Positions 20,438 to 40,283 of a stretch of DNA of 64,000 nucleotides are shown piece by piece (positions within the stretch are counted from its first letter, which is position 1; every line of letters starts with the position of its first letter). The DNA lies in contig CAUSLL010000002.1 of NCBI GenBank assembly GCA_963532835.1, positions 95-64,094 on the forward strand. The letters run 5' to 3'. This DNA is from an uncultured Candidatus Saccharibacteria bacterium (GTDB lineage: Bacteria > Patescibacteriota > Saccharimonadia > Saccharimonadales > Saccharimonadaceae). The translations under genes and the position numbers were made by a program. The notes beneath the pieces were generated by a model that did no database searches, was not told the origin of the DNA, and worked only from the letters and a program-made list of their open reading frames with translations.

Positions 20438-20527
20438 TGGCGGAAGGGGAGGGATTCGAACCCTCGGTACGTTTTACCGCACGCCGGTTTTCAAGACCGG
20501 TACCTTCAACCACTCGGTCACCCTTCC
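20438..20527 (-). tRNA. tRNA-Ser (anticodon TGA), CCA encoded
   Basis: Reverse complement GGAAGGGTGACCGAGTGG...CCGGT-CTTGAAA-ACCGG...GGTTCGAATCCCTCCCCTTCCGCCA, with a long variable arm. Confidence 0.9.
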
Positions 20528-20609
20528 AGAAATCTGTTCACATTATACCACACTCCTGTTCACAAATAAAAATTCCCAACCCGTAAGTTGAGAATTTCAT
20601 ATCAGTTCC

Positions 20610-20702
20610 TGGCGGAGGAGGGGAGATTCGAACTCCCGCTACAGATCTCTCCGTACTAACGATTTAGCAAACCGTCCCCTTCAGCCACTTGGGTACTCCT
20701 CC
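20610..20702 (-). tRNA. tRNA-Ser (anticodon GCT), CCA encoded
   Basis: Reverse complement GGAGGAGTACCCAAGTGG...ACGGT-TTGCTAA-ATCGT...AGTTCGAATCTCCCCTCCTCCGCCA, with a long variable arm. Confidence 0.9.
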
Positions 20703-20761
20703 AAAATGTACACCATGAAACCTGGTTACATTGTACCACACCTGTACAAAATACCATAGCG

Positions 20762-20790
20762 TTGACTTTTTAATACCAAACAAGGATAAT
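20762..20790 (+). promoter_or_regulatory. promoter TTGACT-17-GATAAT, 9 nt upstream of the orphan pilin ATG
   Basis: TTGACT 20762-20767 and GATAAT 20785-20790. ATG at 20800 with no SD. Confidence 0.5.
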
Positions 20791-20799
20791 ATAACTATT

Positions 20800-21201
20800 A
20801 TGAAGAAGTTTCTAACTGTTGGCGCAAGCATCATCATAACAACCATGTTAGCATTGACCATCACTGGTCTACCAGCTCTGGCACTTGGTGAGGGTGGTTT
20901 TGCAGAAGGTGTAGAGGCAGCTCGTGGCAACGGTGTGCCAACCAACCTGTGGAATGGTGACAGCTCTCTGGTGCGTCGGGTTATCAACTTCATGCTGATC
21001 GGTATCGCTGTGGTCAGCGTGGTGATGCTTATCTTTGGTGGTTTTCGTTACGTCATATCTGGTGGACGGAAGGAATCAGTTACTGCCGCCAAAAACACCA
21101 TCTTGTATGCTGTGATTGGTCTATTGATTGCTCTTTTCGCCTATGCCATCATCAAGTTTGTCATCAACTTCGCCGTCAGCGGTGGCTCTACTGACGTCTA
21201 G
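20800..21201 (+). CDS. VirB2/TrbC-like T4SS pilin paralog P1 (orphan copy)
   Basis: 133 aa from MKKFLTVGASIIITTMLALTITGLPALALG (signal peptide). Two-TM hairpin with the loop GGFRYVISGGRKESVTAAKNTILYAVIGLLIALFAYAII shared with the 24.3-26.2 kb array. Confidence 0.7.
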   Translation: MKKFLTVGASIIITTMLALTITGLPALALGEGGFAEGVEAARGNGVPTNLWNGDSSLVRRVINFMLIGIAVVSVVMLIFGGFRYVISGGRKESVTAAKNTILYAVIGLLIALFAYAIIKFVINFAVSGGSTDV

Positions 21202-21233
21202 TCTACACATTATGCTCATGGTATACTAAAACC

Positions 21234-21731
21234 ATGGAAGCAGAACCAACCAAAACAACAACTCATGACCTGTCTGAACCATTTTCTTGGCACGCCCCAG
21301 AGACCAGAGGTCCAGCACGTGGTCTAGGCTGGTATCTATCATTTGCCGTGGTCATCATGGCACTCATGGCACTGTCTGTTTTTTGGATAAAAAGCTGGAC
21401 ATTCACGGTGTTAATACCCATCATGGCGGTAGCGTTACTATCTCTGTCTACCAAGACTCCTCGCATGATCAACTATGCCATTAGCCCCAAAGGTGTTTAT
21501 GTGGCGGACAAGTTATACGATTTTAGTGAATTCAAGGCTTTTGGTGTTATCGAATATCAAGGTCAATTCTCAGTATTACTACTTCCCGTTAAACGTTTCT
21601 CACCGGGGCTAACTATCTACTTTTCAGAGGCGGAAGGGGAAACCATTGTCGATATGTTAGGTACACGTCTCCCCATGCAAGAGATAAAACCAGACGCTTT
21701 GGAAAAACTCATCCGAATCATCAAGCTTTAG
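21234..21731 (+). CDS. hypothetical 2-TM membrane protein with C-terminal soluble domain
   Basis: 165-aa ORF with two adjacent hydrophobic helices (aa ~33-75) followed by a ~90-aa domain. Function unknown. Confidence 0.55.
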   Translation: MEAEPTKTTTHDLSEPFSWHAPETRGPARGLGWYLSFAVVIMALMALSVFWIKSWTFTVLIPIMAVALLSLSTKTPRMINYAISPKGVYVADKLYDFSEFKAFGVIEYQGQFSVLLLPVKRFSPGLTIYFSEAEGETIVDMLGTRLPMQEIKPDALEKLIRIIKL

Positions 21732-21846
21732 CTTGCTCTTAGCTTTTGATATGTGTTAGAATGTAAAAGTTCGATGTTCATGATGTGAGCAGAGAAGGTA
21801 CCTTATATTTTTGTTATGGCCAATCGGTTTTGCCGAAAGGCTGTAT

Positions 21847-21923
21847 GCACCCGTAGCTCAGCTGGATAGAGCGTTGGCTTGCGGAGCCAAAGGTCGTACG
21901 TTCGAATCGTGCCGGGTGTACCA
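21847..21923 (+). tRNA. tRNA-Arg with genomically encoded anticodon GCG, CCA encoded
   Basis: GCACCCG-TA-GCTC-AGCTGGATA-GAGC-G-TTGGC-TTGCGGA-GCCAA-AGGTC-GTACG-TTCGAAT-CGTGC-CGGGTGT-ACCA. Folded by hand; loop UU-GCG-GA. Confidence 0.85.
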
Positions 21924-21935
21924 ATTAGCATTATC

Positions 21936-21970
21936 AAAATAGCTCTTCGTCATGGAAGAGCTATTTTTAT
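21936..21970. terminator. bidirectional intrinsic terminator
   Basis: AAAATAGCTCTTC-GTCATG-GAAGAGCTATTTT forms a perfect 13-bp stem with flanking A and T tracts. Confidence 0.65.
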
Positions 21971-21989
21971 TCTGAACCACTCCCGTGGA

Positions 21990-22244
21990 TTATTCTTCTG
22001 TCGGCTCCTCTTTAAAAGACGGTTCAGACAACCTAACTGTGTTCTCAAAATGATCTACCTCAATGGAGTCTGCAGTATCAGCAGCAAGAAGTGCATCTGG
22101 CGCAGAAATACCGTATTCTTTTGCCATTACATCAAGAAATTGAACGGTATTAACCGCCGCCCCTCCTAAGCCCCTAATAACCTCCTTTGCAACTTCAATA
22201 TAGTGAGGTAACTTTTCATAGTCTAAACCATAGTTAAAACCCAT
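21990..22244 (-). CDS. hypothetical small acidic protein
   Basis: 84-aa ORF between a terminator and a tRNA. No recognisable motif. Confidence 0.4.
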   Translation of the reverse strand: MGFNYGLDYEKLPHYIEVAKEVIRGLGGAAVNTVQFLDVMAKEYGISAPDALLAADTADSIEVDHFENTVRLSEPSFKEEPTEE

Positions 22245-22303
22245 ATTATCATCTCCTTTTTACCATATTTCAACATTATTATATCATACTATTCATCTCT
22301 GGT

Positions 22304-22330
22304 AAAACAAAACCCTCACAGAGGTGAGGG
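22304..22330 (-). terminator. intrinsic terminator after tRNA-Ser(CGA)
   Basis: Minus-strand CCCUCAC-CUCU-GUGAGGG followed by UUUUGUUUU. Confidence 0.55.
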
Positions 22331-22346
22331 CTGACTAAACATTTCA

Positions 22347-22435
22347 TGGCGGAGAGAGAGGGATTCGAACCCTCGAAGCCTTGCCGGCTTACCGCTTTTC
22401 GAGAGCGGCCAGTTCAACCACTCCTGCACCTCTCC
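22347..22435 (-). tRNA. tRNA-Ser (anticodon CGA), CCA encoded
   Basis: Reverse complement GGAGAGGTGCAGGAGTGG...CCGCT-CTCGAAA-AGCGG...GGTTCGAATCCCTCTCTCTCCGCCA. Confidence 0.9.
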
Positions 22436-24200: not shown

Positions 24201-24220
24201 CCAGTCACTAATTTCTACTA

Positions 24221-24250
24221 AAAACACCAGCCGTAATGACTGGTGTTTTT
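24221..24250. terminator. bidirectional intrinsic terminator between hsp20 and pilin P2
   Basis: AAAACACCAG-9 nt-CTGGTGTTTT. Confidence 0.6.
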
Positions 24251-24268: not shown

Positions 24269-24649
24269 TTAGTTACCAGTAACCTTATTGACCACGAAGT
24301 TAACGATAGCGTAGGCAAAGATTGCAATCAACAAACCAATCAAGGAGTACATGATAGTGTTCTTAGCAGATGTCACCTTAGCGCTGTCACCATTGGATGT
24401 GGTGTACTTGAAACCACCAAGGATCAACATAAACACAGAGACAATCGCAATGGCCATCAATGCAAAGTTAATTGACTTTGAGATGATGTCGTCAACGTTA
24501 GCAGTAGCACCGGTGTTGGCGTTTTGAACCTTATTCAAACCTTCTCGAACCTGGGCAAATGCGTTATCACCAGAAGCCAAAAATACTACACCCATGACCA
24601 ACATAGGAAGGGCAAACGCGCCAGCTATTTTAATAATGGTTTTTTTCAT
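24269..24649 (-). CDS. VirB2/TrbC-like T4SS pilin paralog P2
   Basis: 126 aa with a signal peptide ...GDNAFA. Loop motif GGFKYTTSNGDSAKVTSAKNTIMYSLIGLLIAIFAYAIV. Own extended -10 (TGGTATAAT, 24695-24703 minus). Confidence 0.7.
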   Translation of the reverse strand: MKKTIIKIAGAFALPMLVMGVVFLASGDNAFAQVREGLNKVQNANTGATANVDDIISKSINFALMAIAIVSVFMLILGGFKYTTSNGDSAKVTSAKNTIMYSLIGLLIAIFAYAIVNFVVNKVTGN

Positions 24650-24735
24650 GAATTTCGTTTCCTTTCCTTGGGAAATTGATTGTTATTTTACTTCATTATA
24701 CCATATTTTACTATTTGTCTATACCATGTTGACCT

Positions 24736-25107
24736 CTATTGGACGATGCTGCGAAATACATAATCAACAATACCGTAAGCAAGGGCAGAGATGATCACGC
24801 CGATGATGGCATACAGAATGGTGTTTTTAGCAGAGCTCAGTTTGGCGCTGTCACCGTTGGATGTGCTGTATTTCAACCCACCAATAATAACCATCACGAC
24901 GGATACGATACCAGAGATAATCAGCAGATATCTGATGACTGTTTTGATGACAGGATCGACCGACTCGCTGCTATTGGCGCAAACAATGTTGTTTGGATCA
25001 GTACTACAAGCATCATAAATTCCAACCGCCAAAGCAGCTTGTGACAGTAAAAATCCACCGACCATGACAAAGGCCAGAGCAGTGGTAATAGTTACGATTT
25101 TTTTCAT
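24736..25107 (-). CDS. VirB2/TrbC-like T4SS pilin paralog P3
   Basis: 123 aa with a signal peptide ...SQAALA. Motif GGLKYSTSNGDSAKLSSAKNTILYAIIGVIISALAYGIV. Its start overlaps the P4 stop (TAATG). Confidence 0.7.
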   Translation of the reverse strand: MKKIVTITTALAFVMVGGFLLSQAALAVGIYDACSTDPNNIVCANSSESVDPVIKTVIRYLLIISGIVSVVMVIIGGLKYSTSNGDSAKLSSAKNTILYAIIGVIISALAYGIVDYVFRSIVQ

Positions 25108-25403
25108 TAGTTAAACCTCCCTGCGACATAGTTTGTAATAACAAAAGCACACCATACCACCAGCAGACCAACCACCGAATAGATGATACCGTTTTTAGCC
25201 TTGGAGACTTTGCCTGGATCACCAGCGGATACACTGTACATAATGCCATAGATGATGATGGAAATGATGGCCACCACTGCTGAAACTGCAAACACAAGGT
25301 TGGCTATATCACGCAGCGCTACACTATCATTTTTACGATCAGGAATCCCTACGTCACTCGGGGAACCTAATTGGCTAACAATTTGAACGATAAACTTTTC
25401 CAT
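25107..25403 (-). CDS. divergent pilin-like paralog P4 (no N-terminal signal peptide)
   Basis: 98 aa. The hydrophilic N-terminus is followed by the same two-TM hairpin: IIIYGIMYSVSAGDPGKVSKAKNGIIYSVVGLLVV. Confidence 0.6.
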   Translation of the reverse strand: MEKFIVQIVSQLGSPSDVGIPDRKNDSVALRDIANLVFAVSAVVAIISIIIYGIMYSVSAGDPGKVSKAKNGIIYSVVGLLVVWCAFVITNYVAGRFN

Positions 25404-25405
25404 AC

Positions 25406-25831
25406 TTATAACAATGCTCCTGATACCCAGTTTACTATACCCACTGAAGCAACGGCTATAACCAGTCCGATGATGGCATTAAAGACTGTTTTTCGTCCAC
25501 GAGCCGCCCGATCTGGCGATCCTGAGCTGGTGATGAACAGAAAACCACCGTATATGATGTATCCTGCTGCAATATAACCCGTGATTTGGAACAAGTCTTC
25601 AATGAGATTCAGGGCAATTCGCCAGATGTATGGGCCAAAACCGCCAACAGCGCTCGGGCTCTGTAGTTCACATGAATCACCTGACATCAAGTTATAGTAC
25701 CACGGTTTTAGTGTCATAATACGACCACGTTCATCACAAGCACCAGCTAAGGCAGGTTGTGTGCTGACAAATGCCATACCAAAGCTACCCATAAACACCA
25801 AAGTAACTGCTATAATTGCTCTTTTGATCAT
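25406..25831 (-). CDS. divergent pilin-like paralog P5
   Basis: 141 aa with a signal peptide ...TQPALA. Hairpin YIIYGGFLFITSSGSPDRAARGRKTVFNAIIGLVIAV. Its start overlaps the P6 stop (ATGA). Confidence 0.6.
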   Translation of the reverse strand: MIKRAIIAVTLVFMGSFGMAFVSTQPALAGACDERGRIMTLKPWYYNLMSGDSCELQSPSAVGGFGPYIWRIALNLIEDLFQITGYIAAGYIIYGGFLFITSSGSPDRAARGRKTVFNAIIGLVIAVASVGIVNWVSGALL

Positions 25832-26217
25832 GAGAATACTCCTCCTGGGATTAAGAATTGGGTGAGTGTAACGAAAAATGCATAGAGTAGCAAGCCTATC
25901 ACGACATTAATCCAAATCTCGCGAGCTTTTTTGATGTTTTCTGGCTTATCTCCAGATGATGAAAACAATATTCCACCATAGACTACCGCACCAACAGCTG
26001 TGACACCTACACCCATGGTCAAAATTTTTACCGCCTGTTTAACGATGTCAAATATAGCCTCTTTACCGCTCTTACCGCCACATTCTATGGTTGAAGTATC
26101 GACGCCAGCACATTTCTTCGCACTCTCCTCCTCAGCAAATACTGGAGTCGACACAGCAAAACCGACCAGTAAGACTACGGCAATGATGGTTTTTGTAAAG
26201 AAATTTCTGTTTACCAT
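25828..26217 (-). CDS. divergent pilin-like paralog P6
   Basis: 129 aa from MVNRNFFTKTIIAVVLLVGFAVSTPVFA. Hairpin VVYGGILFSSSGDKPENIKKAREIWINVVIGLLLYAFF. The track's TTG start at 26274 lies in the promoter, so it was trimmed. Confidence 0.6.
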   Translation of the reverse strand: MVNRNFFTKTIIAVVLLVGFAVSTPVFAEEESAKKCAGVDTSTIECGGKSGKEAIFDIVKQAVKILTMGVGVTAVGAVVYGGILFSSSGDKPENIKKAREIWINVVIGLLLYAFFVTLTQFLIPGGVFS

Positions 26218-26252
26218 GATTGTTCTACCAATATTAGGTTGATATGTGACTA

Positions 26253-26281
26253 ATTGTAAGATATTGTCGCTCAAAATGCAA
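26253..26281 (-). promoter_or_regulatory. promoter TTGCAT-17-TACAAT for the P6-P5-P4-P3 pilin operon
   Basis: Minus strand: TTGCAT (26281-26276), 17-nt spacer, TACAAT (26258-26253). Confidence 0.4.
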
Positions 26282-26346: not shown

Positions 26347-26424
26347 GCGCTCGTAGTGAAGTTGGTCCATCACGCCTCCCTGTCACGGAGGAGATCGCCG
26401 GTTCGAATCCGGTCGGGCGCGCCA
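26347..26424 (+). tRNA. tRNA-Asp (anticodon GTC), CCA encoded
   Basis: GCGCTCG...CCTCC-CTGTCAC-GGAGG...GGTTCGAATCCGGTCGGGCGCGCCA, folded by hand. Confidence 0.9.
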
Positions 26425-26427
26425 CAG

Positions 26428-26456
26428 ACACCCAGTTGACAGGGTGTTTTTATTTT
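26428..26456 (+). terminator. intrinsic terminator after tRNA-Asp
   Basis: ACACCC-8 nt-GGGTGT followed by TTTTTATTTT. Confidence 0.5.
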
Positions 26457-26572: not shown

Positions 26573-27601
26573 ATGAACGAGCGTAACCCAAGCGATTCAA
26601 AAAATACATTAAACCGCCGAAGGTTCATGGAGCTTTTTACGGTCGGCGCTGGAACAATGGCTGTAGCAGCCTGTGGTAACAAGGAAAATCCTACACCGAA
26701 ACCAACATCAGGACAACTAGGTGAAAGAGTAGAGGACAGTCCTTCGCCGGAAGTATCTCCAACTCCTGAGGTGAGTTTTCAGAGTTTAGAATCTAGTGAA
26801 TTCAACTCAGAAGTTGAATTGTTCCAAAAATATTTTGAAAGCAATATACCAGACAAGGACAAGTTTAAAGCATCCTTATGTATACCAGAACGCATCTTTT
26901 CAGACCCTACAGAAATGTCAAAAGCCTTTAGTGCTGTTTTTGAGACGGTAACTAATGTGTTTACGTATGGAGAAGACGAGAAAGATAAAGGAATTGTTCC
27001 CGTATCTGAAGTTGAGAAAGTATGGAAGGCTAATGAGTTTGGCCGGGCTACCACAAATAAGCCTCGTCTCATAATGGCTGAAGAGTTGGTTGATTTCTTT
27101 TTGGAAGAGTATTGTGTTGACACGATACTCAAAAAACCAGGTGTATATCCAGACGGGAATCCAGAACCACTAAATTCTACCGATCTTCGTAGATGGTTAA
27201 CAGATGTCGTAAATGCACAACTTTCTCTCCAAAGAGAGTCTGAAGGAAAAGGGAGTGCATATTCTGTTGTTTCGCCAGCAAATCCAGATAGGGTTTTGAA
27301 AAATATTAAGGTCGAGGGGTTTACAGCTGAAAAGCAAAGTTACGCAGGCTCCAGCCTTTTTATGAAAAATGTCACCTTCCGCCCAGACACCAACTATAAT
27401 GAGTTAAGTTCATTCCTTGAAGAGGACAATGGTGTCAGCAAGGGCTATTTGGACCAGATTTTGGGTGAAGCTGTCAATGGTGTCAAATTTGAAAAAGTTT
27501 CCTTTACTAAATCTGAGACCAACCCTGGAACAGTGGTGCTATCTGACCTTACCTTTTACGCACCACGATCAGACACCTATACAAAACTACACCAAGACTA
27601 A
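26573..27601 (+). CDS. Tat-signal lipoprotein, function unknown (first gene of the T4SS-like block)
   Basis: 342 aa. Twin-arginine motif NRRRFMEL followed by lipobox AVAAC|GNK. No recognisable catalytic motif. Confidence 0.6.
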   Translation: MNERNPSDSKNTLNRRRFMELFTVGAGTMAVAACGNKENPTPKPTSGQLGERVEDSPSPEVSPTPEVSFQSLESSEFNSEVELFQKYFESNIPDKDKFKASLCIPERIFSDPTEMSKAFSAVFETVTNVFTYGEDEKDKGIVPVSEVEKVWKANEFGRATTNKPRLIMAEELVDFFLEEYCVDTILKKPGVYPDGNPEPLNSTDLRRWLTDVVNAQLSLQRESEGKGSAYSVVSPANPDRVLKNIKVEGFTAEKQSYAGSSLFMKNVTFRPDTNYNELSSFLEEDNGVSKGYLDQILGEAVNGVKFEKVSFTKSETNPGTVVLSDLTFYAPRSDTYTKLHQD

Positions 27602-27622
27602 TAAGCATTTGCGCTTTTGAGA

Positions 27623-27657
27623 CATATACACTACAATTTGTAGTGTATATGTTTTTT
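27623..27657 (+). terminator. strong hairpin plus T6 located 19 nt upstream of the VirB6-like gene start
   Basis: CATATACACTAC-AATTT-GTAGTGTATATG forms a perfect 12-bp stem, followed by TTTTTT. Confidence 0.6.
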
Positions 27658-27675
27658 CTGAAAGGGCATCAAAAC

Positions 27676-30600
27676 ATGGGTAAAAAGCGAGGGTTGATAG
27701 TACTCTCCGCGCTAGTAGTGGCACTTATATCAGCGGTGTTACTTGCTCCGCAGGCAGAGGCTGCGAAAAATTTGAAATTACGGCAAAAAGTTGAATCGGC
27801 GTTAATCTATGCCAACCTAACACATCGAGGTGAAGACACAGGAACAGGTGGTCGTGATGGCGCTACAGGAGCTGATTGGTCATGCATTAATGATCTTTCA
27901 GGGGCAAGATATAGAGATACTTCATCCACTGACGCCAACTGGCCCCCTTCAAATGGCGATAATGCAGAAAACCAAAATACCTTTGTAGGAAAGAAGGCAG
28001 CTAACGGCATACAAAACTTTAAAGGTGTTGATCCGATCACCACAACTGCAGCATCAGACCGCAGTTGCGCTGGGCTTATGAAAGCTGGCATTGACATATG
28101 GGAAGGATCTTCTAAATATGCTGATTTCTACCGACACATGGGAGGTAAATTCTTTACTCAGAGTTCTAAAAATCAGGCTGGGTGGTTATTCCGTGGAGTC
28201 AGGTATAGTGGTGATAAGGACGATATAGCAGATAGCTGCACTAGCTATCCTCATGAAAGCTGGGGACGTTTTTCAGCAGCCGTAAACAATCTAGATGGCA
28301 TAACTGGGAAATATATTAAAAATTACAGGGTTGGTCCAGATAGCTGGGCAGCCGACTCAGTACCATATGCATGCGTCCCAAGCAAGGGCGGAAAAACTAT
28401 TAGGGATGCATTAGATAACGGTATTAAAAATGCAACTGGTAGCTTGCCATCGATAACATCTGGTAGTGCGGAGCATTGGTATATGCACTCAACAATATTT
28501 ACCGGTGGCTGTGATGCAAAAAGAGAAGGGTCTCTGAAAGAAGTTCCCGGGGCTAACCCGGACAGTTCTGGTTATTATTACTACAAGATTCCTTTCACTA
28601 GCAAAGACGGTAAAAATGGCGATATTATATATAAAACTTCCGGAGGAAACAAAACCTTCTGGGTGATTCAACCTGGTGATAGTACTGGTAAAATGACAAA
28701 GGTAGCATGTAAAGATATAGGGTCTTGGCTACAGACCAACAAAGCTGCTTTTGACAAATTTGCAAAATATGCGTCTGAGCATAAAGACGAGCATAAAGAT
28801 CTTGCCATAGGAGACTCTCCAGAAAAAAGTGCCGACTCCTCAGCACAGTCTACAGAAGATGCCGGGGAGCAAAAAGAGGAAAAAACATGTACTAGTGAGT
28901 TAACGGGTATCGGGTGGTTTATCTGCCCAGTCATTGACAAACTGGCTGACTTTGCCGACTCAGTCTGGGGAATGTTAGAAGAATATTTAGTTACAAGCCC
29001 CTTGCAGGCTTCAAATGATGGTCCATACAAATCATGGAAAGTCATGCGAGACCTTGCTAATGTCCTGTTGGCGCTGGTATTTATACTAATCATCATCTCA
29101 CAGGTGTCAAATGTCGGTATATCCAATTACGGCATCAAAAAAATGTTGCCTCGTTTCATCATTGCTGCGGTTGCGGTAAACATATCCTACTTTGTCATCC
29201 AGGTCATCGTTGATATTGCAAACATTCTCGGCAGTACGCTTTTGGCAATTATCACTGAACCAATTAGTACTGTAGATGTTAAAAATGTCGGCTGGGGCAA
29301 CCTCTTAACCCTGATTTTAGGAGCGACGACGACCACAGCTGCGACGCTAGCCGGCGGGGTTGTTGCTGCATCTGTTTTTGGAATTGGAACTATGTTTATG
29401 TTCGTGCTCATGGCGATCGTTCCGGGTGTTATCGGAGTGGTCGGGGGGCTTATCGCATTAGTATTTCGATCAGCACTGATACCAGTCCTCGCCATCTTGG
29501 CTCCGCTGGCTTTTGCGGCCTGGATTTTACCAAATACCCAAGGCGTCTTTGACAAATGGAAAAAAGTCTTCACTGGTATGGTCTTCCTATACCCTCTAGC
29601 AGCAATATACTATGGCGGGCTTAAGCTATTGTCTTTCACTATCCTGGATAATCCTGACAGTGACACAATGCAACGGCTGATGGCGCTATTTCTGATGTTT
29701 GCTGGTACTTTCGTCATCCTCGGTATGGCACTGAAGTCCAATGCTATCATCGGCAGCCTGATGGGGCGAGCCAGTGGACTGTTAAACAAAGCGTCGGCAC
29801 CGGCACTTAATGCAGGAAATAAATTCGCCAAACGTAGAGCAAGCATGAAGCGCAGTGAATTTATGGCTAGAGATTTTAGTAAGAATCCAGTAAGGGGACG
29901 CTTGCAAGGAGGTCTAAGAAAATTACGTCAACGCTCACTTGACCGAGAAACTCGAGCATCGCTGGCAGAACAGAGCGAGCAACAGCGTTACCGAGCAGGG
30001 TTGGCTGAGGCTTCTGGAGGTGAACTGGACAAGCGCCTTGGGTTTGCAGCAGCTACTACTGGTGGTCAGGAATACATCCATAAATTATCCCAAGAGGCTG
30101 CAGCTAAAAAATTGCGGTTCGAATACAACAGTAATGCAGTTGAGGCTCTACGGTCAGATGACAAATACGTTCAAGCAGCAGCAGCAGAAAAACTGTCTCA
30201 ACAAGGCGCTTGGGGAACAGGACAGTTGCGTAAATATCTGGAAGAAGGTGGTAAAATTACCAGTATCGAGATGGGGGATGCCCTTACTAGCGTGAAGAAG
30301 TACGATGCCGGAGTGGCTGCTGCCGGAGTGGCTGGTTTTGATGCAATAGGCAAAGGACAGCAGGCTTATGGCGTCAGTCGAGAAGAGTTAGCCCAAATGA
30401 CAAGTAAAGCATTTGAAAACCTTTCTGTAGATAATTTATCTACGCAGAGTGCAGAGGCACTTGTTAATGCTTACGACAAGGGAGGCTTGGCAAACAGTAG
30501 GGCTGCTGAAGTGTCCGATAGTTCACGATACATGGGTCAAGCCAATGGTAAGACCGCACCAGTATTTGAAGCCCTGGGTCAAAAAGGAGAAAAAGGTCAG

Positions 30601-30993
30601 ACCAATCTTAAGGCAGCAATTGACACAATAAAGTCCAATATGGCTAGTTCGCAGCCAGCAACACCATCTGTACCACCATTGCAGCAAAATCAAGCTCCGC
30701 AGGGTGTGGCGCAGCCAACACCTTCTCAGGCACCAAGCATGACTCCTGATCGTTACTACCCCATCAAAGAGCAGGCGCGGGGACCAGAAGCTCCAAAACC
30801 AGATTCACTGTCTTCAGGTGGTCAAACACAAGCTCCGGCTCCACAGGTTAACGTTACCGTACAAGTGGATAGATCTTCTAATCCGACGGATGCTACCAGT
30901 ATCCCACCGAGCTATATTGACCAGGGTGGCACCAGTGGCACTGGACGGTCACAGCACCGACGCAACCGACCGCCTACTGCGTTTGGCCGATAG
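27676..30993 (+). CDS. giant VirB6/TrbL-like polytopic membrane protein A (Cys-rich ectodomain + TM core + long C-terminal domain)
   Basis: 1105 aa from MGKKRGLIVLSALVV. Signal peptide ...APQAEA, a ~400-aa Cys-containing ectodomain, at least 6 TM helices (aa ~470-720), a ~300-aa charged domain and a P/Q-rich tail. Assignment rests on topology and context, not on a search. Confidence 0.6.
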   Translation: MGKKRGLIVLSALVVALISAVLLAPQAEAAKNLKLRQKVESALIYANLTHRGEDTGTGGRDGATGADWSCINDLSGARYRDTSSTDANWPPSNGDNAENQNTFVGKKAANGIQNFKGVDPITTTAASDRSCAGLMKAGIDIWEGSSKYADFYRHMGGKFFTQSSKNQAGWLFRGVRYSGDKDDIADSCTSYPHESWGRFSAAVNNLDGITGKYIKNYRVGPDSWAADSVPYACVPSKGGKTIRDALDNGIKNATGSLPSITSGSAEHWYMHSTIFTGGCDAKREGSLKEVPGANPDSSGYYYYKIPFTSKDGKNGDIIYKTSGGNKTFWVIQPGDSTGKMTKVACKDIGSWLQTNKAAFDKFAKYASEHKDEHKDLAIGDSPEKSADSSAQSTEDAGEQKEEKTCTSELTGIGWFICPVIDKLADFADSVWGMLEEYLVTSPLQASNDGPYKSWKVMRDLANVLLALVFILIIISQVSNVGISNYGIKKMLPRFIIAAVAVNISYFVIQVIVDIANILGSTLLAIITEPISTVDVKNVGWGNLLTLILGATTTTAATLAGGVVAASVFGIGTMFMFVLMAIVPGVIGVVGGLIALVFRSALIPVLAILAPLAFAAWILPNTQGVFDKWKKVFTGMVFLYPLAAIYYGGLKLLSFTILDNPDSDTMQRLMALFLMFAGTFVILGMALKSNAIIGSLMGRASGLLNKASAPALNAGNKFAKRRASMKRSEFMARDFSKNPVRGRLQGGLRKLRQRSLDRETRASLAEQSEQQRYRAGLAEASGGELDKRLGFAAATTGGQEYIHKLSQEAAAKKLRFEYNSNAVEALRSDDKYVQAAAAEKLSQQGAWGTGQLRKYLEEGGKITSIEMGDALTSVKKYDAGVAAAGVAGFDAIGKGQQAYGVSREELAQMTSKAFENLSVDNLSTQSAEALVNAYDKGGLANSRAAEVSDSSRYMGQANGKTAPVFEALGQKGEKGQTNLKAAIDTIKSNMASSQPATPSVPPLQQNQAPQGVAQPTPSQAPSMTPDRYYPIKEQARGPEAPKPDSLSSGGQTQAPAPQVNVTVQVDRSSNPTDATSIPPSYIDQGGTSGTGRSQHRRNRPPTAFGR

Positions 30994-31003
30994 ATTCATA
31001 TAG

Positions 31004-31032
31004 TTGACTTTTGCGCGAAAAAATGCTACCAT
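31004..31032 (+). promoter_or_regulatory. internal promoter candidate TTGACT-17-TACCAT (with TGC extended -10)
   Basis: Lies in the 62-nt spacer between the two VirB6-like genes. Confidence 0.3.
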
Positions 31033-31055
31033 TTACAGTAATGGAGTGGTTGAAA

Positions 31056-33554
31056 ATGCGAGTGCGTCCGCAAATACGTCGGTCGCAGTGGTTTGCCATA
31101 CTGACTATTGGTATTTTTGTCGGGTTTTTTAGTGGTATACTCATCAACTCTACTTCGGTTTATGCCGCTGAAGCTCAGTGGAAAAGCGACTCACTAGTCG
31201 TTGATGGCAAAACCCTCAAACCAGTTAACGACACGGCTCGTAAAAAACTGCTTGGTCGCGACAGTAAGGACTGGGTCTATGAGGCGGTTGAAGGCAATCA
31301 ATCAACCGTGGTCTTTTTCGCTGGAAATAGCAATCCACGAACCGCTACTACTGCTAAATACGTCAAATACACCCTGAACGGCAGCACACCAACACCGACA
31401 GGCGAGCCAGAGGACATTGAAGTTAAACAGGACAGCAACCCCAGCGAGGCAGAGTGTGATGTGAGAGGGGGAACCGGTTGGTTTATTTGCCCAATCTCTA
31501 ACGGAATCGCCTCAGGAATTGACGAAGTTTATACATGGATTTCCGACCTGATGACCACACCGGCGATAGACAGCTCCAACAATAGCTCTGGGGTAAAGGT
31601 GGCTTGGGACATCATGCGAAATATTGCCAATGCAGCGTTTATTGTCGCTTTTTTGATCGTTATTTATTCACAACTCACCTCAGTTGGCATCAGTAATTAT
31701 GGCATTAAAAAACTAGTTCCACGAGTGGTTATTGCCGCAATCTTAGTCAACCTGTCTTTCATCATTTGTGCCTTAATGATTGATTTATCAAACATCTTCG
31801 GTGTTGCCTTACAAGATATGTTCAACGAAATCCGTTCTCAAGTGTCAGCAAACGGCGCGTTCAATGGTGCTCCACTACCAACTTGGAGCGACTTGGTAGC
31901 CATGGTCCTGTCTGGTGGTGCAGCGACAGCGGGGGTGTATGGCGCACTAGCGGTAACCGGTGGATCATTAGCTTCAGCTGCTTACTGGCTACTGCCTATC
32001 ATCGCTAGTATTTTACTAACTCTAACGGTCGTCTTTATCATCTTGGCAGCACGACAAGCATTATTAATCATCCTGACCGTCATATCACCACTAGCTTTCG
32101 TGTGCTATCTGTTACCAGGCACCGAGAAATTCTTTGAAAAATGGCGAAACTTAATGTTCACCTTGGTGATATTTTTCCCGGCATTTTCAGTGGTCTTTGG
32201 CGGAGCACAGCTGGCAGGAATGATCATTTTACAAAACGCCAACTCATGGATTATGGTAATTTTAGGGCTGGCAGTGCAAGTTTCAGCCCTAGCTATCGCA
32301 CCTCTGGTGTTCAAGTTGAGTGGCGGTGTACTGGGTCGAGTGGCTGGTATCGTCAATAACAAGAACCGCGGCGTTATTGACCGCACCAAAAACTGGTCTC
32401 GTGACCGTAGCCAATTGGCAGCACACAAGAATTCATTAGGTAAATCAGATGATGAATTGAAGAAAATCAGTGGCCTCCGTAAAATGGGGCGCTGGGCTAA
32501 TTACCGCTCACGTAAGTTCAAAACCCGTTCAGAAGCCTACCAAAAGCGTGCTGATGCAGCATACAAACTTTCCCGCGCCAATCAGATTGCTGACATTGAG
32601 TCACGGGCTGCCGCTGACCAATTGTCACTAGCCGATGTTACAACCGCAAACGCTTATGAGGAGATGAAAGTTGAAGGTACACCGACACCAGCCAACCTGA
32701 GAAAGAGAGCTGCCCGCCGCTATGAAACACTACAGGAAGAAACTCAACGAGAAGCGCGTAGTATTGCAATTCAAGGGCTGCGAAAAAACAGTATTCAGCG
32801 CGTTAATGACTACATCTTAGCAAACGACTTAGCTAACCAAGAGGATTTGCGAGCCCAAGCAGGTTCTGTGGAAAATATGTACTTTGGTAACGACCGTGGT
32901 TCACAGCGTGTGTGGTCAACGGCACGTAGCACCATCACTAAGGCTAATAAGGAATCGATTGAGAACGCTATGACTATTCTCAATGCCATGAACGTCAGCA
33001 ATGATGATATGGTGGAATTGGCTAATGGTGTTAGTCGACGCGGCTTGACGGTCACTGATGATATCCGCTACGCAGCGATTCACCACGTGTTAGGTGGTAA
33101 AGATGCCGTGGCCATCCAAAGCTTACTACAAAAAACCGACTTCGGTGCGCTTAATGACGACTTCGCGCAAGAATATGGTGACGCATTGCTATCCAACTCT
33201 GCTAAGCCAGCTTGGTTGGGTGGTGCAGCTGCCGCGGCCATTAAGGCAAATAAGGTTGACATGAACGGTCCAGACTACATGAGGAAGCTTATGCTTGATA
33301 ACCTTAATATCGGTGGTTTGTCGACCGAAGCAATTGTTGGTTCAGACCTGGCTTACTTGAAGCCGCTCAAGGAAGCCCTGAGCGACCAAAGCTTTGTCTC
33401 ACAAATCAATGAAACTGGACTGGACACACTGCGCAAGAACCTTGTTTTGGCACAAACTGATCCTCGATTTAGTAGTCGAATTGGTAAGACCGGTGGTACA
33501 ATTCGAGAAATCTCTCTTTCTCTGGGGATTAAGCCCGAAGATTTAACTAGTTAA
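31056..33554 (+). CDS. giant VirB6/TrbL-like polytopic membrane protein B (paralog of A)
   Basis: 832 aa from ATG 31056, with GGAGTGG SD 7 nt upstream. Shares GTGWFICP and W-x-[VI]MR-x-[LI]AN...SQ[VL][ST][NS]VGISNYGIKK[ML][LV]PR with protein A. Has a TM core and a ~400-aa C-terminal domain. Confidence 0.6.
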   Translation: MRVRPQIRRSQWFAILTIGIFVGFFSGILINSTSVYAAEAQWKSDSLVVDGKTLKPVNDTARKKLLGRDSKDWVYEAVEGNQSTVVFFAGNSNPRTATTAKYVKYTLNGSTPTPTGEPEDIEVKQDSNPSEAECDVRGGTGWFICPISNGIASGIDEVYTWISDLMTTPAIDSSNNSSGVKVAWDIMRNIANAAFIVAFLIVIYSQLTSVGISNYGIKKLVPRVVIAAILVNLSFIICALMIDLSNIFGVALQDMFNEIRSQVSANGAFNGAPLPTWSDLVAMVLSGGAATAGVYGALAVTGGSLASAAYWLLPIIASILLTLTVVFIILAARQALLIILTVISPLAFVCYLLPGTEKFFEKWRNLMFTLVIFFPAFSVVFGGAQLAGMIILQNANSWIMVILGLAVQVSALAIAPLVFKLSGGVLGRVAGIVNNKNRGVIDRTKNWSRDRSQLAAHKNSLGKSDDELKKISGLRKMGRWANYRSRKFKTRSEAYQKRADAAYKLSRANQIADIESRAAADQLSLADVTTANAYEEMKVEGTPTPANLRKRAARRYETLQEETQREARSIAIQGLRKNSIQRVNDYILANDLANQEDLRAQAGSVENMYFGNDRGSQRVWSTARSTITKANKESIENAMTILNAMNVSNDDMVELANGVSRRGLTVTDDIRYAAIHHVLGGKDAVAIQSLLQKTDFGALNDDFAQEYGDALLSNSAKPAWLGGAAAAAIKANKVDMNGPDYMRKLMLDNLNIGGLSTEAIVGSDLAYLKPLKEALSDQSFVSQINETGLDTLRKNLVLAQTDPRFSSRIGKTGGTIREISLSLGIKPEDLTS

Positions 33555-33562
33555 GCTATCTT

Positions 33563-33571
33563 TGCTATACT
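33563..33571 (+). promoter_or_regulatory. extended -10 (TGCTATACT) 8 nt upstream of the PrgI-like ATG
   Basis: TGC at 33563-33565 and TATACT at 33566-33571. ATG at 33580 with no SD. Confidence 0.35.
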
Positions 33572-33579
33572 AGTAGCAT

Positions 33580-34506
33580 ATGGCTGTGTATAGAGTGCCC
33601 CAGGATGTGGAAGCAGAAGACAAGCTGCTTGGGCCATTCAGTTTTAAGCAATTTGTGTTTCTCATCATCGCGGTGGGCTTTTTTGGTATAGCGTGGGCGC
33701 TAGGAGTCGCCTTGTTACCATTAGCAATCATTCCTTTGCCATTTGGGGTGTTTTTCACCGTATTAGCGTTGCCACTACGTAAGGAACAGCCGATGGAAAT
33801 ATATATTGCGGCAGTGATATCATTTTTCTTAAAACCGCGCGTGCGGCTCTGGGAGCCAGACGGAGTAGAGACGCTGATAGAAGTGGTGGCACCAAAAACT
33901 AAGGAAGAGAACCTGAGTAAGAACTATGATCAACGAGAGATCCAGCGACGATTATCATATCTGGCAAACATCGTTGACACGCATGGTTGGTCGGTCCGCG
34001 GCGTCGGCAACCCAGAAGCAACGGGTAATTTAGATACCGCCAGTTCACTACAGGCTGATTTTTATAATACCGCTGTCCAGGCAGAGGAAGACATTTTAGA
34101 TCGGGATAACACTACTTCACGACAAATTGCTGATATGATCGCCGAGACAGACCAACAGCGGCGAGAACAACTGATGCAGCGCATGCAAAAACCTCAAACA
34201 CCAACGGCACAACAGCCGACTCAGCCAGCAGTTTTCATGGCAGCTCAAGAAGACACACCAAAACTAACCGTTAACCCGTACCCCCACATGCGTCAAGGTG
34301 TCCTGTCTCCGGCCGGGGAACGATCTACCGTCACGCCACCAACCGACCAAAATCAACCTATACAACAACCTGTTGACCCTGGTATAATAGATTTGGCAAA
34401 TAATCATTCCGATCTTTCCATAGCGACCCTACAAAAAGAAGCAGATCGGATACATAAACGCTCAGAGGAAACAGCTGAGGAGGAAGTGGTGATTTCACTA
34501 CGTTAG
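33580..34506 (+). CDS. PrgI/VirB3-like small membrane T4SS component with long P/Q-rich C-terminal extension
   Basis: 308 aa. N-terminus MAVYRVPQDVEAEDKLLGPFSFKQFVFLIIAVGFFGIAW plus a second TM matches the PrgI-family pattern (motif recalled from memory). It sits immediately upstream of the VirB4 genes. Confidence 0.6.
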   Translation: MAVYRVPQDVEAEDKLLGPFSFKQFVFLIIAVGFFGIAWALGVALLPLAIIPLPFGVFFTVLALPLRKEQPMEIYIAAVISFFLKPRVRLWEPDGVETLIEVVAPKTKEENLSKNYDQREIQRRLSYLANIVDTHGWSVRGVGNPEATGNLDTASSLQADFYNTAVQAEEDILDRDNTTSRQIADMIAETDQQRREQLMQRMQKPQTPTAQQPTQPAVFMAAQEDTPKLTVNPYPHMRQGVLSPAGERSTVTPPTDQNQPIQQPVDPGIIDLANNHSDLSIATLQKEADRIHKRSEETAEEEVVISLR

Positions 34507-34513
34507 GTGGGAA

Positions 34514-35428
34514 ATGCAACCAGATAATCAACAACCATATCAGTTACCACCCAACCCGACGACACCGCCGGTTGTTTCTGGGCAGCCTAGTCAACCATTA
34601 CCGCCACAGCAGCCACAACCTGGTCAGCCAGCGTTGCCAATGCAGCCTGGTATAACTCAGCCAGGTCAGCCAGCTCCAAATCCACAGAATCCACCAGCTC
34701 CGAAAGACAAAAAGAGCGCCATCAGCACACAAAATACGTTATTGTTTTCAGAAATGCGTGAAAACATGATCATCATGAGTGATGGTAGTTTTCGTGCGGT
34801 GATAGAATGTCAGTCTATCAACTTTGATTTGATGAGTACTCGTGAGCGAGAAGCTATCGAATTTAGCTATCAAAACCTACTCAACTCGCTCTATTTTCCA
34901 GTTCAGATCCTAGTACGATCACAGCGTGTCGATATCGGTCCATACCTTGATCGATTGTCGCGCATTCGCCGCTCTCAAGATAATATGTTACTGAATGTGC
35001 TGATGGATGACTATATGAACTTCATCGAGGTGCTGTCACAAGAAGCGAACATTATGGATAAGCGATTTTTCATCGTGGTGCCATATTTCCCCGGCGGCGA
35101 TGTTAATGCCATGAAACAACAAGCAAAAGGTCTGTTTGATAGCTTCTTTAGTGGTAAAAAGGAAACATTGATCACTAGAATCGATCAACCAATGTATGAA
35201 AAAGCAAAAGATGAGATCAAAAACCGCATCGATACGGTGATGAACGGTTTATTTGCCATGGGTGTGAAGAGTTTACAACTTAACACCAGGCAGCTTGGAG
35301 AATTGTTCTATATCTCGTACAATCCTGATACTGCAGCACGTCAGCCATTAGTACGCAACCCAAATGATCTGACGACGACTTATATCCGCAAGGGAAATGG
35401 TGAGTCACCATATGGAGGAGATTTCTAA
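34514..35428 (+). CDS. T4SS-associated protein; candidate detached N-terminal domain of VirB4, with P/Q-rich head
   Basis: 304 aa. After 65 aa of P/Q repeats comes IMSDGSFRAVIECQSINFDLMSTREREAIEFSYQNLLNSLYFPVQILVRS, which resembles the N-terminus of Gram-positive VirB4 ATPases (from memory). Its stop overlaps the VirB4 ATG (TAATG). Confidence 0.45.
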   Translation: MQPDNQQPYQLPPNPTTPPVVSGQPSQPLPPQQPQPGQPALPMQPGITQPGQPAPNPQNPPAPKDKKSAISTQNTLLFSEMRENMIIMSDGSFRAVIECQSINFDLMSTREREAIEFSYQNLLNSLYFPVQILVRSQRVDIGPYLDRLSRIRRSQDNMLLNVLMDDYMNFIEVLSQEANIMDKRFFIVVPYFPGGDVNAMKQQAKGLFDSFFSGKKETLITRIDQPMYEKAKDEIKNRIDTVMNGLFAMGVKSLQLNTRQLGELFYISYNPDTAARQPLVRNPNDLTTTYIRKGNGESPYGGDF

Positions 35429-37266: not shown

Positions 37267-37268
37267 TC

Positions 37269-40200: not shown

Positions 40201-40283
40201 CACCATGGGCAAGGGATCGCAATAATCCTGGTTGGTATAAAGATGAACCATGGCACTGGGACTACGCAAGGAGAGTACAATGA
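37269..40283 (+). CDS. membrane-anchored T4SS-associated protein with C-terminal M15 (VanY/D-Ala-D-Ala carboxypeptidase-type) peptidoglycan peptidase domain
   Basis: 1004 aa with a single TM (aa ~88-110) and a large extracytoplasmic region with a K/E-rich, probably helical segment. C-terminal LAS-type zinc motifs SKHGHGLALDI and DEPWHWDY. Confidence 0.7.
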   Translation: MARIDYTTDPDVDERLNPASEQTSKYLNSMENNAANDNFYDGDKKDDGLNAANSVNNQEQLYSRSPLGKAGGKKRGNLLANMTRKKWGATAGIGGGLFGLMMLFFTILPYKLDAMVSTITDQLSSVPQHAINQRLEYITTRWVAMKMMQTAYPGDANIVFCAGGGVLCHLGATKYSTWFEEQLDAKFEQEGRKVKVVFNASGRNTLGGKATSFSMHLESKDMDSVLKGVEKELSHKDMRRHIKKMTRKVHGRNYFMRYLSKRVLYRKYGVKKFNIIPEKAGQKYADFKAKIKLNMNTRITAKMSPRFAAYLGCLDGTDAKKCQDTLDKLNNDLDSKISEAEKEAEKATGDNKTKADEKVKKVKGQKEALNNIDSLSKAAPDTPLGKIISKQLFKKIAAANAIIGAIDLVAKIVGAVDQKIIEIVGADQKKQLYTAFTYDEEASPVLTRDQIRAGTIDNIQHVELATSLFDGAESAPIFQATFGGNNTAVSLLYPTAYAEDGGIRTKCDVGGEQKVVALDPGELVCPEKKIVKDYTTFTKYPVWRVLAGIAEAWNSTFGAIIDFVGDTVGKVFSWFFSYLQELPGLKQLVELSEGLIEKAMGWAVSLLFGIPEVGVDAPGNNNFEALHGGLTTTMQSSTEAGQAGADSGSKQPDGIGGARLTNQQVSVLAKQIEQERDEEFREQPLMAKLFDPTLKRSVAGQLLAVMPTSGFSTARLLARAPIALAYAVTPTNTHAAKYDQAAVMRAFGVTWHGFTDEAVYKADPSQYTDNVCSAKAKAREESYGIHEGDLVPTYSVADPCALELTVAGNLALMADDKEGKYYPKEIDDPSANTGAQQPSSGPVGDAIGPPELEEAQTFGAEPASWGGHRNGEIPLSAMSELKTAPGHYMHPKAAQAFDAMNEAYAQEHGGQHMTITESYRTLATQQDYFSSGITQATPGTSKHGHGLALDINVGGSSFNTPIYLWLAANASKYGFVNPPWARDRNNPGWYKDEPWHWDYARRVQ

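Follow-up and report, generated by a model that had tools for sequence, protein, structure and literature searches.

An ordered array of PF18895 pilin-family paralogs with an apparently leaderless third member beside a type IV secretion locus of Candidatus Saccharibacteria

Here, we have analyzed a stretch of 64,000 nucleotides (positions 95 to 64,094 of contig CAUSLL010000002.1, assembly GCA_963532835.1; hereafter the window) from an uncultured Candidatus Saccharibacteria bacterium, in which five small open reading frames (ORFs) on the minus strand, named P6, P5, P4, P3 and P2 in order of transcription, form a pilin array spanning 24269-26217 beside the genes of a type IV secretion system (T4SS). 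We consider it probable (roughly 0.6) that the array encodes non-redundant, anciently diverged PF18895 subunits of one T4SS-associated pilus or conduit. Arrays of this type have already been published, and the window holds a correct rediscovery and another instance of them: the array is orthologous to SEML1_0014-0019 of Southlakia epibionticum and to the array of TM7x. An earlier interpretation made from the DNA letters and their translations (the sequence-only reading) had recognized a five-gene array of VirB2-like pilin paralogs and proposed that variable exposed heads would permit host-range or antigenic diversification. Our results agree with the first of these statements and do not support the second.

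Family membership and sequence classes

All five array proteins matched the Pfam model PF18895 (T4SS_pilin) above its gathering score of 26.6 bits, as did P1, an orphan pilin of the P2/P3 class located ~3 kb from the array. E-values within the array ranged from 7e-8 to 2e-12, with P4 being the best of the five (47.3 bits, 2e-12), followed by P2 (42.5 bits, 7e-11), P3 (39.9 bits, 4.6e-10), P5 (38.1 bits, 1.6e-9) and P6 (32.9 bits, 7e-8); P1 scored 30.1 bits (5e-7). Matches at this level are not expected by chance. The presence of VirB6-like, PrgI/VirB3 and VirB4 genes alongside these five ORFs further bears out the pilin array recognized previously.

The six paralogs could be aligned across a C-terminal hydrophobic two-helix hairpin of ~70 aa, with a short basic loop between the helices. 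Hairpin identity was 58% for P1/P2, 52% for P2/P3 and 45% for P1/P3, 33-36% between P4 and these three proteins, and 19-30% between P5 or P6 and the other paralogs. Thus, sequence groups do exist among the paralogs as had been suggested, but the P1, P2 and P3 hairpins are far from the near-identity attributed to them. The shared hairpin was present in every member; the strict loop motif that had been proposed along with it fits P2, P3 and P5 only, with 8/9 of the specified positions matched in P4, 7/9 in P1 and 6/9 in P6. Heads preceding the hairpin are indeed unrelated between different paralogs (12-32% identity).

On the basis of a hydrophobicity criterion rather than a dedicated signal-peptide predictor, apolar N-terminal runs of 10-18 residues were found in P1, P2, P3, P5 and P6, compared with a run of 3 in P4, which is consistent with the lack of an N-terminal hydrophobic signal reported for P4 before. 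By the same criterion, a signal peptide was assigned to P6, P5, P3 and P2. Their heads differ in cysteine content: a Cys pair is present in the head of P6 and in that of P5, the longest of the set, the P3 head bears a Cys loop (CSTDPN..C), and the P2 head is devoid of Cys.

The relationship to other pilin families appeared to be distant. PF04956 (gathering score 27.9 bits) was matched below threshold by P4 (15.8 bits) and P5 (15.3 bits) and had no match in the others; weak, precomputed matches to this model are carried by some relatives and likewise by Southlakia SEML1_0018/0019. The best NCBIfam match of P1-P5, extending over the whole hairpin, was NF045849 ('Mbov_0395 family pilin-like conjugal transfer protein'), which derives from a Mycoplasma integrative and conjugative element. 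E-values were 3e-8 to 1e-3 and scores 18.7-33.2 bits, short of the 40-bit cut-off, and P6 had no match; by these scores P1-P5 would be relatives of NF045849 and not members. This hints that a related pilin-like hairpin exists in monoderm MPF-FATA-type elements, and the likeness bears on whether Patescibacteria pilins arrived with MPF-FATA-type machinery and on where these pilins originated, the latter a question raised by Quinonero-Coronel et al. (2025; PMC12102498). The element from which NF045849 derives is of this type and has an adjacent VirB4; judging from the model name, the gene is apparently single there, whereas an array is present here. A literature search on Mbov_0395 yielded nothing useful. 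Taken at the level of family models, the array proteins are best filed under PF18895 and the Saccharibacteria pilin array, with 'VirB2-like' denoting a putative remote relationship.

Conservation, selection and gene order

Our sample consisted of 8 conspecific contigs encoding an identical P4 and 80 loci from species-representative genomes, in which 413 pilin ORFs were found with a hidden Markov model built on the window hairpins. Comparison within the genus (23 arrays, or 9 genomes in the case of P1; synonymous divergence, dS, 0.2-0.8) gave ratios of non-synonymous to synonymous divergence (dN/dS) of 0.00-0.21 in every region of P1-P6, indicating purifying selection throughout. Heads were 100% identical in P1 (dN/dS 0.00; its hairpin was also 100% identical), 99.6% in P3 (0.002), 95% in P2 (0.08), 95% in P4 (0.15), 90% in P6 (0.14) and 82% in P5 (0.21), the last being the most variable of the set yet still under purifying selection. 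For hairpins the ratio was 0.006-0.08, and those of P2 (99.8% identical, dN/dS 0.006) and P6 (99.3%, 0.009) hardly varied within the genus. Between genera, heads were 33-49% identical compared with 51-72% for hairpins, and the P2 hairpin was the most conserved across the class (72%). These figures suggest that heads are less constrained than hairpins but that each is still an orthologous entity, and that the heads of different paralogs diverged anciently, with no strain-level variation.

Gene order was identical in the 8 conspecific contigs. More distant arrays, which include those of Nanosynbacter, oral taxon 488 and Minimicrobia and whose loci encode a VirB6-like protein only 34-47% identical, could be classified in 44 cases: every one of them starts with P6-P5-P4, position 4 is P3 in 42/44, and P2-class genes come next. 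Orthology of P5 and P6 was unambiguous, with margins of 73-88 bits over the next-best paralog class (88 bits for P5). Five genes were present in all 23 arrays of the window's genus, and most other genera had six, the additional one being a P2/P3-class member. Across the class, the sequence P6-P5-P4-P3 followed by the P2 class was retained in 66/66 arrays, which have the features of individual slots and their spacing in common and likewise lie beside T4SS core genes. Positions 1, 2 and 4 (P6, P5 and P3) have 2-3 Cys in the head in all of these arrays. Position 3, in all but one of the 66, and the last gene are without Cys in the head. There is little space between the early genes (median gaps of -4 to +8 nt for genes 1-4, or 1-5 where the array has six), and a gap of 51-212 nt precedes the last gene in every array.

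Repeats fit for cassette exchange were not found in the region, in which the longest repeat is that of the P2 and P3 hairpins (71% over 144 nt) and the others are a few imperfect matches of 16-32 nt. Cassette recombination or a shufflon was rejected on the basis of this lack of long repeats. Together with the fixed order and the low dN/dS of all heads, this runs counter to the diversification by variable heads that had been proposed for the window.

Junctions and putative regulatory sites of the array

The junctions described in the sequence-only reading proved to be exact. The P5 start overlaps the P6 stop (ATGA, 25828-25831), a 2-nt gap (25404-25405) separates P5 from P4, the P3 start overlaps the P4 stop (TAATG, 25105-25109), and an 86-nt spacer (24650-24735) lies between P3 and P2. 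The two promoter-like boxes were also located where they had been placed, TTGCAT-17-TACAAT upstream of P6 and the extended -10-like box TGGTATAAT in the P3-P2 spacer, and both have counterparts in same-genus genomes. The former is conserved in same-genus loci with spacer variants; a promoter scanner read it in another register (TTTGCA-18-TACAAT, 9/12 matches). A TGnTAnn[AT]T box corresponding to the latter occurs in the P3-P2 spacer of 23/23 five-gene arrays and before the last gene in 11/43 six-gene arrays. It should be noted that the array region has 6 promoter-like sites and shuffled sequence 7.0 +/- 2.6, so that such sites are not enriched; the basis of the promoter calls is thus their position and their conservation in relatives rather than statistics. 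When delimited mechanically, the P6 ORF reaches a TTG at 26274, upstream of the promoter-like box; P6 orthologs are 127-129 aa. At the other end, a 13-bp hairpin with flanking A and U runs, absent from the sequence-only reading, lies between P2 and the convergent Hsp20 gene and closes the array unit. It folds with -17.7 kcal/mol (z -5.4), none of 200 shuffled sequences folded as well, and it is likely a bidirectional terminator.

The apparently leaderless third member and natural fusions

P4 lacks a classical signal-peptide h-region: its N-terminus is amphipathic (longest apolar run 3, Eisenberg mean hydrophobicity 0.51, helical moment 0.47) and contains a motif, hydrophobic-x-LG-x-[AP]-x-x-[LV]-G-[IV]-P, that is conserved across the class. 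Leaderless orthologs of 93-99 aa occupy position 3 in 66/66 arrays. The exact P4 sequence was present in 156 blocks of public assemblies, and a profile search with P4-like proteins retrieved 1,363 relatives, most of those listed being 91-107 aa in length. An AlphaFold2 (AF2) model of P4 (predicted local distance difference test, pLDDT, 81) showed helices at residues 2-11, 24-58 and 63-96, with a linker after the first helix and a pLDDT of ~90 in the hairpin. A frameshifted or mis-started gene was rejected as an explanation because no in-frame upstream start exists and leaderless orthologs of the same length recur in all 66 arrays; decay was rejected in view of a dN/dS of 0.08-0.15.

In some P4 orthologs the N-terminal apolar run reaches 7-10 residues (FFAGLLG, YLYFLAGLLG) and is followed by small residues, so that a very short signal or propeptide, cleaved near G-x-x-x-x-LG[IV]P, is conceivable, in which case P4 would not be truly leaderless. 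The class-wide conservation of the motif would also fit such a segment. However, this segment of the window protein, like that of the fusion lineage described below, is amphipathic (apolar run 3, helical moment 0.47-0.54), the AF2 model shows it as a short separate helix, and a conserved positively charged n-region is missing; we regard this sub-hypothesis as quite unlikely.

Additional information came from natural fusions, proteins of 166-177 aa in which a leaderless pilin continues directly into a second hairpin, the junction being devoid of a signal peptide. Such tandem two-hairpin pilins (L092 8001-8519 and L094 1584-2117; proteins P0132, P0133, P0137, P0187, P0188, P0203, P0228 and P0210) share 47-63% identity with one another, occur on at least 16 contigs and are found, in other lineages, in place of the third gene of arrays whose synteny is otherwise retained. 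In locus L092, for example, the fusion is the third gene of its array: it separates P6-like and P5-like genes from two P3/P2-like genes, and the array is flanked by the same T4SS genes and Hsp20. In P0210, which is known from one low-coverage contig, the second module is P3-like (43% identity, E 8e-23) and includes the CSTDPN..C head between the second and third transmembrane (TM) helices. Because the P3 head is secreted when unfused, the C-terminus of the leaderless module would lie outside the cell, which would in turn place its basic loop in the cytoplasm and its N-terminal tail outside. We infer that the leaderless module may reach the mature VirB2 topology without a cleaved leader; to judge from the fusions, the leaderless subunit may also lie physically next to a P3/P2-class subunit. 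The fusion was modelled with AF2 as well (pLDDT 74.5), and the four long helices obtained are compatible with this topology but add no further information.

Comparison with known systems

Arrays of 4-6 small VirB2-related proteins, all with signal peptides, were described in TM7x and other Saccharibacteria by McLean et al. (2018; bioRxiv 258137). By the hydrophobicity criterion, the statement on signal peptides does not hold for the third gene, either in the window or in Nanosynbacter loci (for example, L070 4401-4685). In the papers searched, we found no mention of a leaderless third slot, of the P4 motif or of fusions of P4 with a second hairpin. Transposon sequencing (Tn-seq) of Southlakia epibionticum ML1 (Wang et al., 2023; PMC10633639, Table S1) scored each of SEML1_0014-0019 (132, 185, 103, 126, 127 and 138 aa) as growth-defect and then essential (GD/ES/ES), and the orphan pilin SEML1_0024 and SEML1_0012 (twin-arginine translocation (TAT) signal, NTF2-like) as non-essential. 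More broadly, Quinonero-Coronel et al. surveyed Patescibacteria and listed 441 arrays from 383 assemblies, with 2-11 pilin genes each and a mean identity of 25%. These arrays are located near virB4 and dnaA and are most abundant in Saccharimonadia, and adaptation to different host strains was proposed for them. The fixed orthogroup order, the leaderless third member and the strain-level purifying selection are unreported in that study and in McLean et al. (2018).

Two outcomes that the sequence-only reading had named as fatal to its idea are addressed by these data. Co-occurrence with VirB4 has been described, a pilin lying near virB4 in 1,135 of 1,948 assemblies (PMC12102498), and no paralog appears to be decaying, as dN/dS does not exceed 0.21 in the window's genus and all six Southlakia genes have the GD/ES/ES score. 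Its premise that canonical T4SSs use one VirB2 holds broadly, but multi-pilin arrays have already been documented for Patescibacteria, Bartonella and Anaplasma (PMC12102498).

The closest parallel is the Southlakia locus. Both there and in the window, PF18895 genes stand in tandem and the third of them is short, the array is followed by Hsp20 in convergent orientation, an orphan pilin is encoded separately nearby, and the neighbouring genes include PrgI, VirB4, a TraC-like gene, a pair of VirB6-like genes and one for a Tat-signal lipoprotein. Differences are that the six genes of Southlakia are five here, with one P2/P3-class member fewer, and that the Tat-motif lipoprotein adjoins the array here but lies between the two VirB6-like genes there. 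In Southlakia essentiality was determined by Tn-seq; the purifying selection observed here is consistent with it and is not a test of it. As in canonical VirB2/TrbC systems (VirB2 of A. tumefaciens, TrbC of RP4), the proteins are small, with a leader, a two-helix hairpin and a basic loop, and VirB3, VirB4 and VirB6 homologs are found in the locus. In contrast with those systems, PF04956 is matched only below threshold, no significant match to solved pilins was obtained, the host is a monoderm, and five or six co-required paralogs take the place of one pilin plus VirB5; a VirB5 homolog was not detected in the locus. Several tandem virB2-like genes per T4SS locus are also a feature of the VirB2 families of Bartonella, Anaplasma and related intracellular bacteria. 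As summarized in PMC12102498, those paralogs are credited with putative roles in antigenic variation or host-surface range, whereas the paralogs of the window are ancient, fixed in order, individually conserved and not strain-variable.

A model of the array and alternative explanations

In the model that we favour, P6, P5, P4 and P3 would be translationally coupled behind one promoter, with P2 expressed from its own spacer and -10 box, and this arrangement would set the subunit ratios and supply extra P2. P6, P5, P3 and P2 would be inserted by the Sec pathway and then cleaved, with their heads facing outward and the conserved Cys pair of P6, P5 and P3 thereby exposed, and P4, having no cleavable leader, would enter the membrane in the same N-out/C-out topology and stay uncleaved and membrane-proximal. 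From these subunits, the adjacent monoderm machine (VirB6-like proteins, PrgI/VirB3, split VirB4 and wall hydrolases) would then build one heteromeric pilus, or a short conduit, directed at the host cell. P2, the candidate major subunit, would be used in bulk, and P6, P5, P4 and P3 would act as specialized minor or initiating subunits; such a major-plus-minor pilin idea is plausible from the layout and conservation of the genes. Here essentiality is taken from the literature on Southlakia, and topology, polymerization, division of labour and any cargo are what we infer. A more specific version, in which the paralogs are obligate, position-specific subunits of one heteromeric monoderm T4SS filament or conduit, with leaderless P4 as a membrane-embedded initiator or base beside a P3/P2-class subunit and the Cys-looped P6 and P5 in distal, host-contacting positions, is tentative and on balance doubtful.

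If this version is correct, a VirB2-type pilus would resemble a type IV pilus in its construction, one pilin being the major component and others serving as dedicated minor pilins. To our knowledge, this architecture is known for no T4SS. A pilin array in a Gram-positive-type system is the oddest feature of the Saccharibacteria T4SS, and the present data constrain models of it: rather than a variation system, the array appears to be a fixed, ancient and co-required set with slot-specific features, for which the natural fusions supply a topology argument. The Saccharibacteria T4SS is also the only T4SS reported to be essential for growth of its carrier (PMC12857230). Concrete experiments are opened by these findings in the genetically tractable or cultured systems Southlakia and TM7x.

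Several points weigh against the model. A filament of these proteins has never been seen, and reviews speak of a Saccharibacteria T4SS pilus as a possibility. Polar effects of transposon insertion could explain the essentiality of upstream genes in Southlakia, and the assignment of major and minor subunits is drawn solely from promoter layout and conservation. Searches against solved structures did not point to a pilin either. A profile of 43 P4-like proteins compared with all PDB sequences gave no pilin and chance hits only (E 2.3 and 4.5). With hhalign, matches to VirB2 of pTiC58 (E 0.12) and to TrbC (E 0.049, in register) were non-significant and on a par with the VirB3 control (E 0.078), the single-sequence templates used being too weak for a judgement on homology. 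A Foldseek search of the PDB with the P4 model found generic helical hairpins (SipB, ATP synthase c, CnrX; best E 0.84), although a fold search of this kind cannot discriminate two-helix hairpins. Finally, evidence of expression is fragmentary: short Logan contigs from eight runs guessed to be RNA lie on parts of P2, P4, P5 and P6, and the body of P3 is uncovered, one contig reaching its stop codon (24736-24739). One contig crosses the putative promoter and the tRNA-Asp gene, so that DNA carry-over is possible. With a Nanosynbacter locus, matches came from low-share wastewater metatranscriptomes.

The same proteins could instead be non-polymerizing parts of a channel or stalk. Their hairpins would then remain within the membrane or the wall zone as fixed components of the T4SS translocon, perhaps as a lining of the VirB6-like channel, and no extended pilus would form. 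Such an arrangement would suit the facts that Gram-positive-type T4SSs are normally without pili (PMC10633639, PMC12857230), that the filaments purified so far from a Saccharibacterium are the unrelated immunoglobulin-fold pili described in the 'Pam' pilus paper on CPR (candidate phyla radiation) bacteria, and that the fold is a generic membrane hairpin; stoichiometry fixed by translational coupling would be equally compatible with a complex and with a filament. On the other hand, the family appears to be related to VirB2/TrbC, as suggested by PF04956 matches that are sub-threshold here and carried by some relatives, six different subunits seem a large number for the lining of a channel, and the putative separate promoter and high conservation of P2 suggest that one subunit is needed in bulk. 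We judge this explanation to be unlikely, though worth keeping in mind.

A role of the paralogs as alternative pilins, whose variable exposed heads diversify host range or evade recognition, as has been suggested for VirB2 paralogs in Bartonella and Anaplasma, appears very unlikely. Unrelated heads in different paralogs and the faster evolution of heads than of hairpins across genera would be expected under it, and the same speculation was made in PMC12102498, but strain-level variation is absent, the P1, P3 and P2 heads being 95-100% identical, the paralog set and its order are fixed across arrays, long repeats are lacking, each Southlakia paralog is individually required, and the hypervariable gene of the locus is that of the Tat-motif lipoprotein and not a pilin. 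Even less probable, in our opinion, is that the proteins are small effectors secreted by Sec and delivered by the T4SS, which is how the TM7x literature treats the array. McLean et al. (2018) described it as an array of small signal-peptide proteins, and the TM7x transcriptome paper listed six 'putative effector genes' in the T4SS region, three of which rise in stable symbiosis and which would correspond to the orthologous pilin array. However, every member has a pair of long hydrophobic helices of the kind seen in integral membrane hairpins, all members match the pilin family model, one of them is leaderless, and their extreme sequence conservation is unlike that of host-facing effectors.

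Neighbouring genes and other features of the window

Coordinates of all features are listed in Table 1. A divergent plus-strand T4SS cluster of monoderm type (26573-41515) places T4SS core genes, identified by Pfam and NCBIfam matches, 1.4-11 kb from the array. VirB4 appears to be split, in that an N-terminal-type protein abuts the protein with the P-loop ATPase domain. Within the genus, the second VirB6-like protein (96.4% identical), PrgI and Hsp20 fall in a range of 96-98% identity; the first VirB6-like protein is 84.5% identical and showed 17 length variants (1070-1119 aa) in 26 genomes. The Tat-motif lipoprotein is hypervariable in 25 same-genus genomes (mean identity 52.7%, dN 0.37, dN/dS 0.49, 342-356 aa). 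Its counterpart in Southlakia is the non-essential SEML1_0012. Going by these comparisons, strain-level diversification of the locus lies outside the pilins, in this lipoprotein. Our results point to it as a strain-variable and possibly host-facing part of the locus, and it is a candidate host-facing or specificity factor.

Table 1 Features of the array and its surroundings in the window
Feature	Coordinates	Strand	Description	Basis
tRNA genes	20438-22435		Three tRNA-Ser and one tRNA-Arg	
P1	20800-21201	+	Orphan pilin of P2/P3 class, 133 aa	PF18895
P1-associated protein	21234-21731	+	165 aa, predicted two-TM, no Pfam match	
13-bp hairpin	24220-24250		Likely bidirectional terminator	RNA fold
P2	24269-24649	minus	Last array gene, 126 aa	ORF
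TGGTATAAT	24703-24695	minus	Putative extended -10-like box, P3-P2 spacer	Read from sequence
P3	24736-25107	minus	Fourth gene, 123 aa	ORF
P4	25107-25403	minus	Third gene, 98 aa	ORF
P5	25406-25831	minus	Second gene, 141 aa	ORF
P6	25828-26217	minus	First gene, 129 aa	ORF
TTGCAT-17-TACAAT	26281-26253	minus	Putative promoter upstream of P6	Read from sequence
tRNA-Asp	26347-26424	+		
Hairpin	26426-26449		Terminator-like	
Tat-motif lipoprotein	26573-27601	+	342 aa	Motif NRRRFMELF, lipobox VAAC
First VirB6/TrbL_3-like protein	27643-30993	+	1116 aa	Pfam
Second VirB6/TrbL_3-like protein	31050-33554	+		Pfam
PrgI/VirB3-like protein	33580-34506	+		Pfam
TraC-like (PF26593)/TrsD-like protein	34514-35428	+	304 aa	Weak match to N-terminal part of VirB4 and TrsD models
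VirB4 ATPase	35428-37266	+	612 aa	P-loop_TraG/AAA_10
VanY-domain protein	37269-40283	+		Pfam
Lysozyme-domain protein	40250-41515	+		Pfam
dnaN and dnaA	42258-44980	minus	~16-17 kb from pilin array	

The T4SS cluster is origin-proximal, as noted for many Patescibacteria in PMC12102498. A search with an 834-aa protein of this cluster gave 3572 homologs, and those with a source name were from Saccharibacteria. The best genome matches were uncultured Candidatus Saccharibacteria, the closest being CAJPQK010000001.1 (99% identity). Between the putative array promoter and the T4SS operon, the divergent region of 355 nt contains the tRNA-Asp gene, with a terminator-like hairpin directly 3' of it. P1 is embedded among the tRNA-Ser and tRNA-Arg genes and followed by the predicted two-TM protein, with which it was paired in 8/8 conspecific contigs; an orphan P1-like gene was seen in 20 distant loci.

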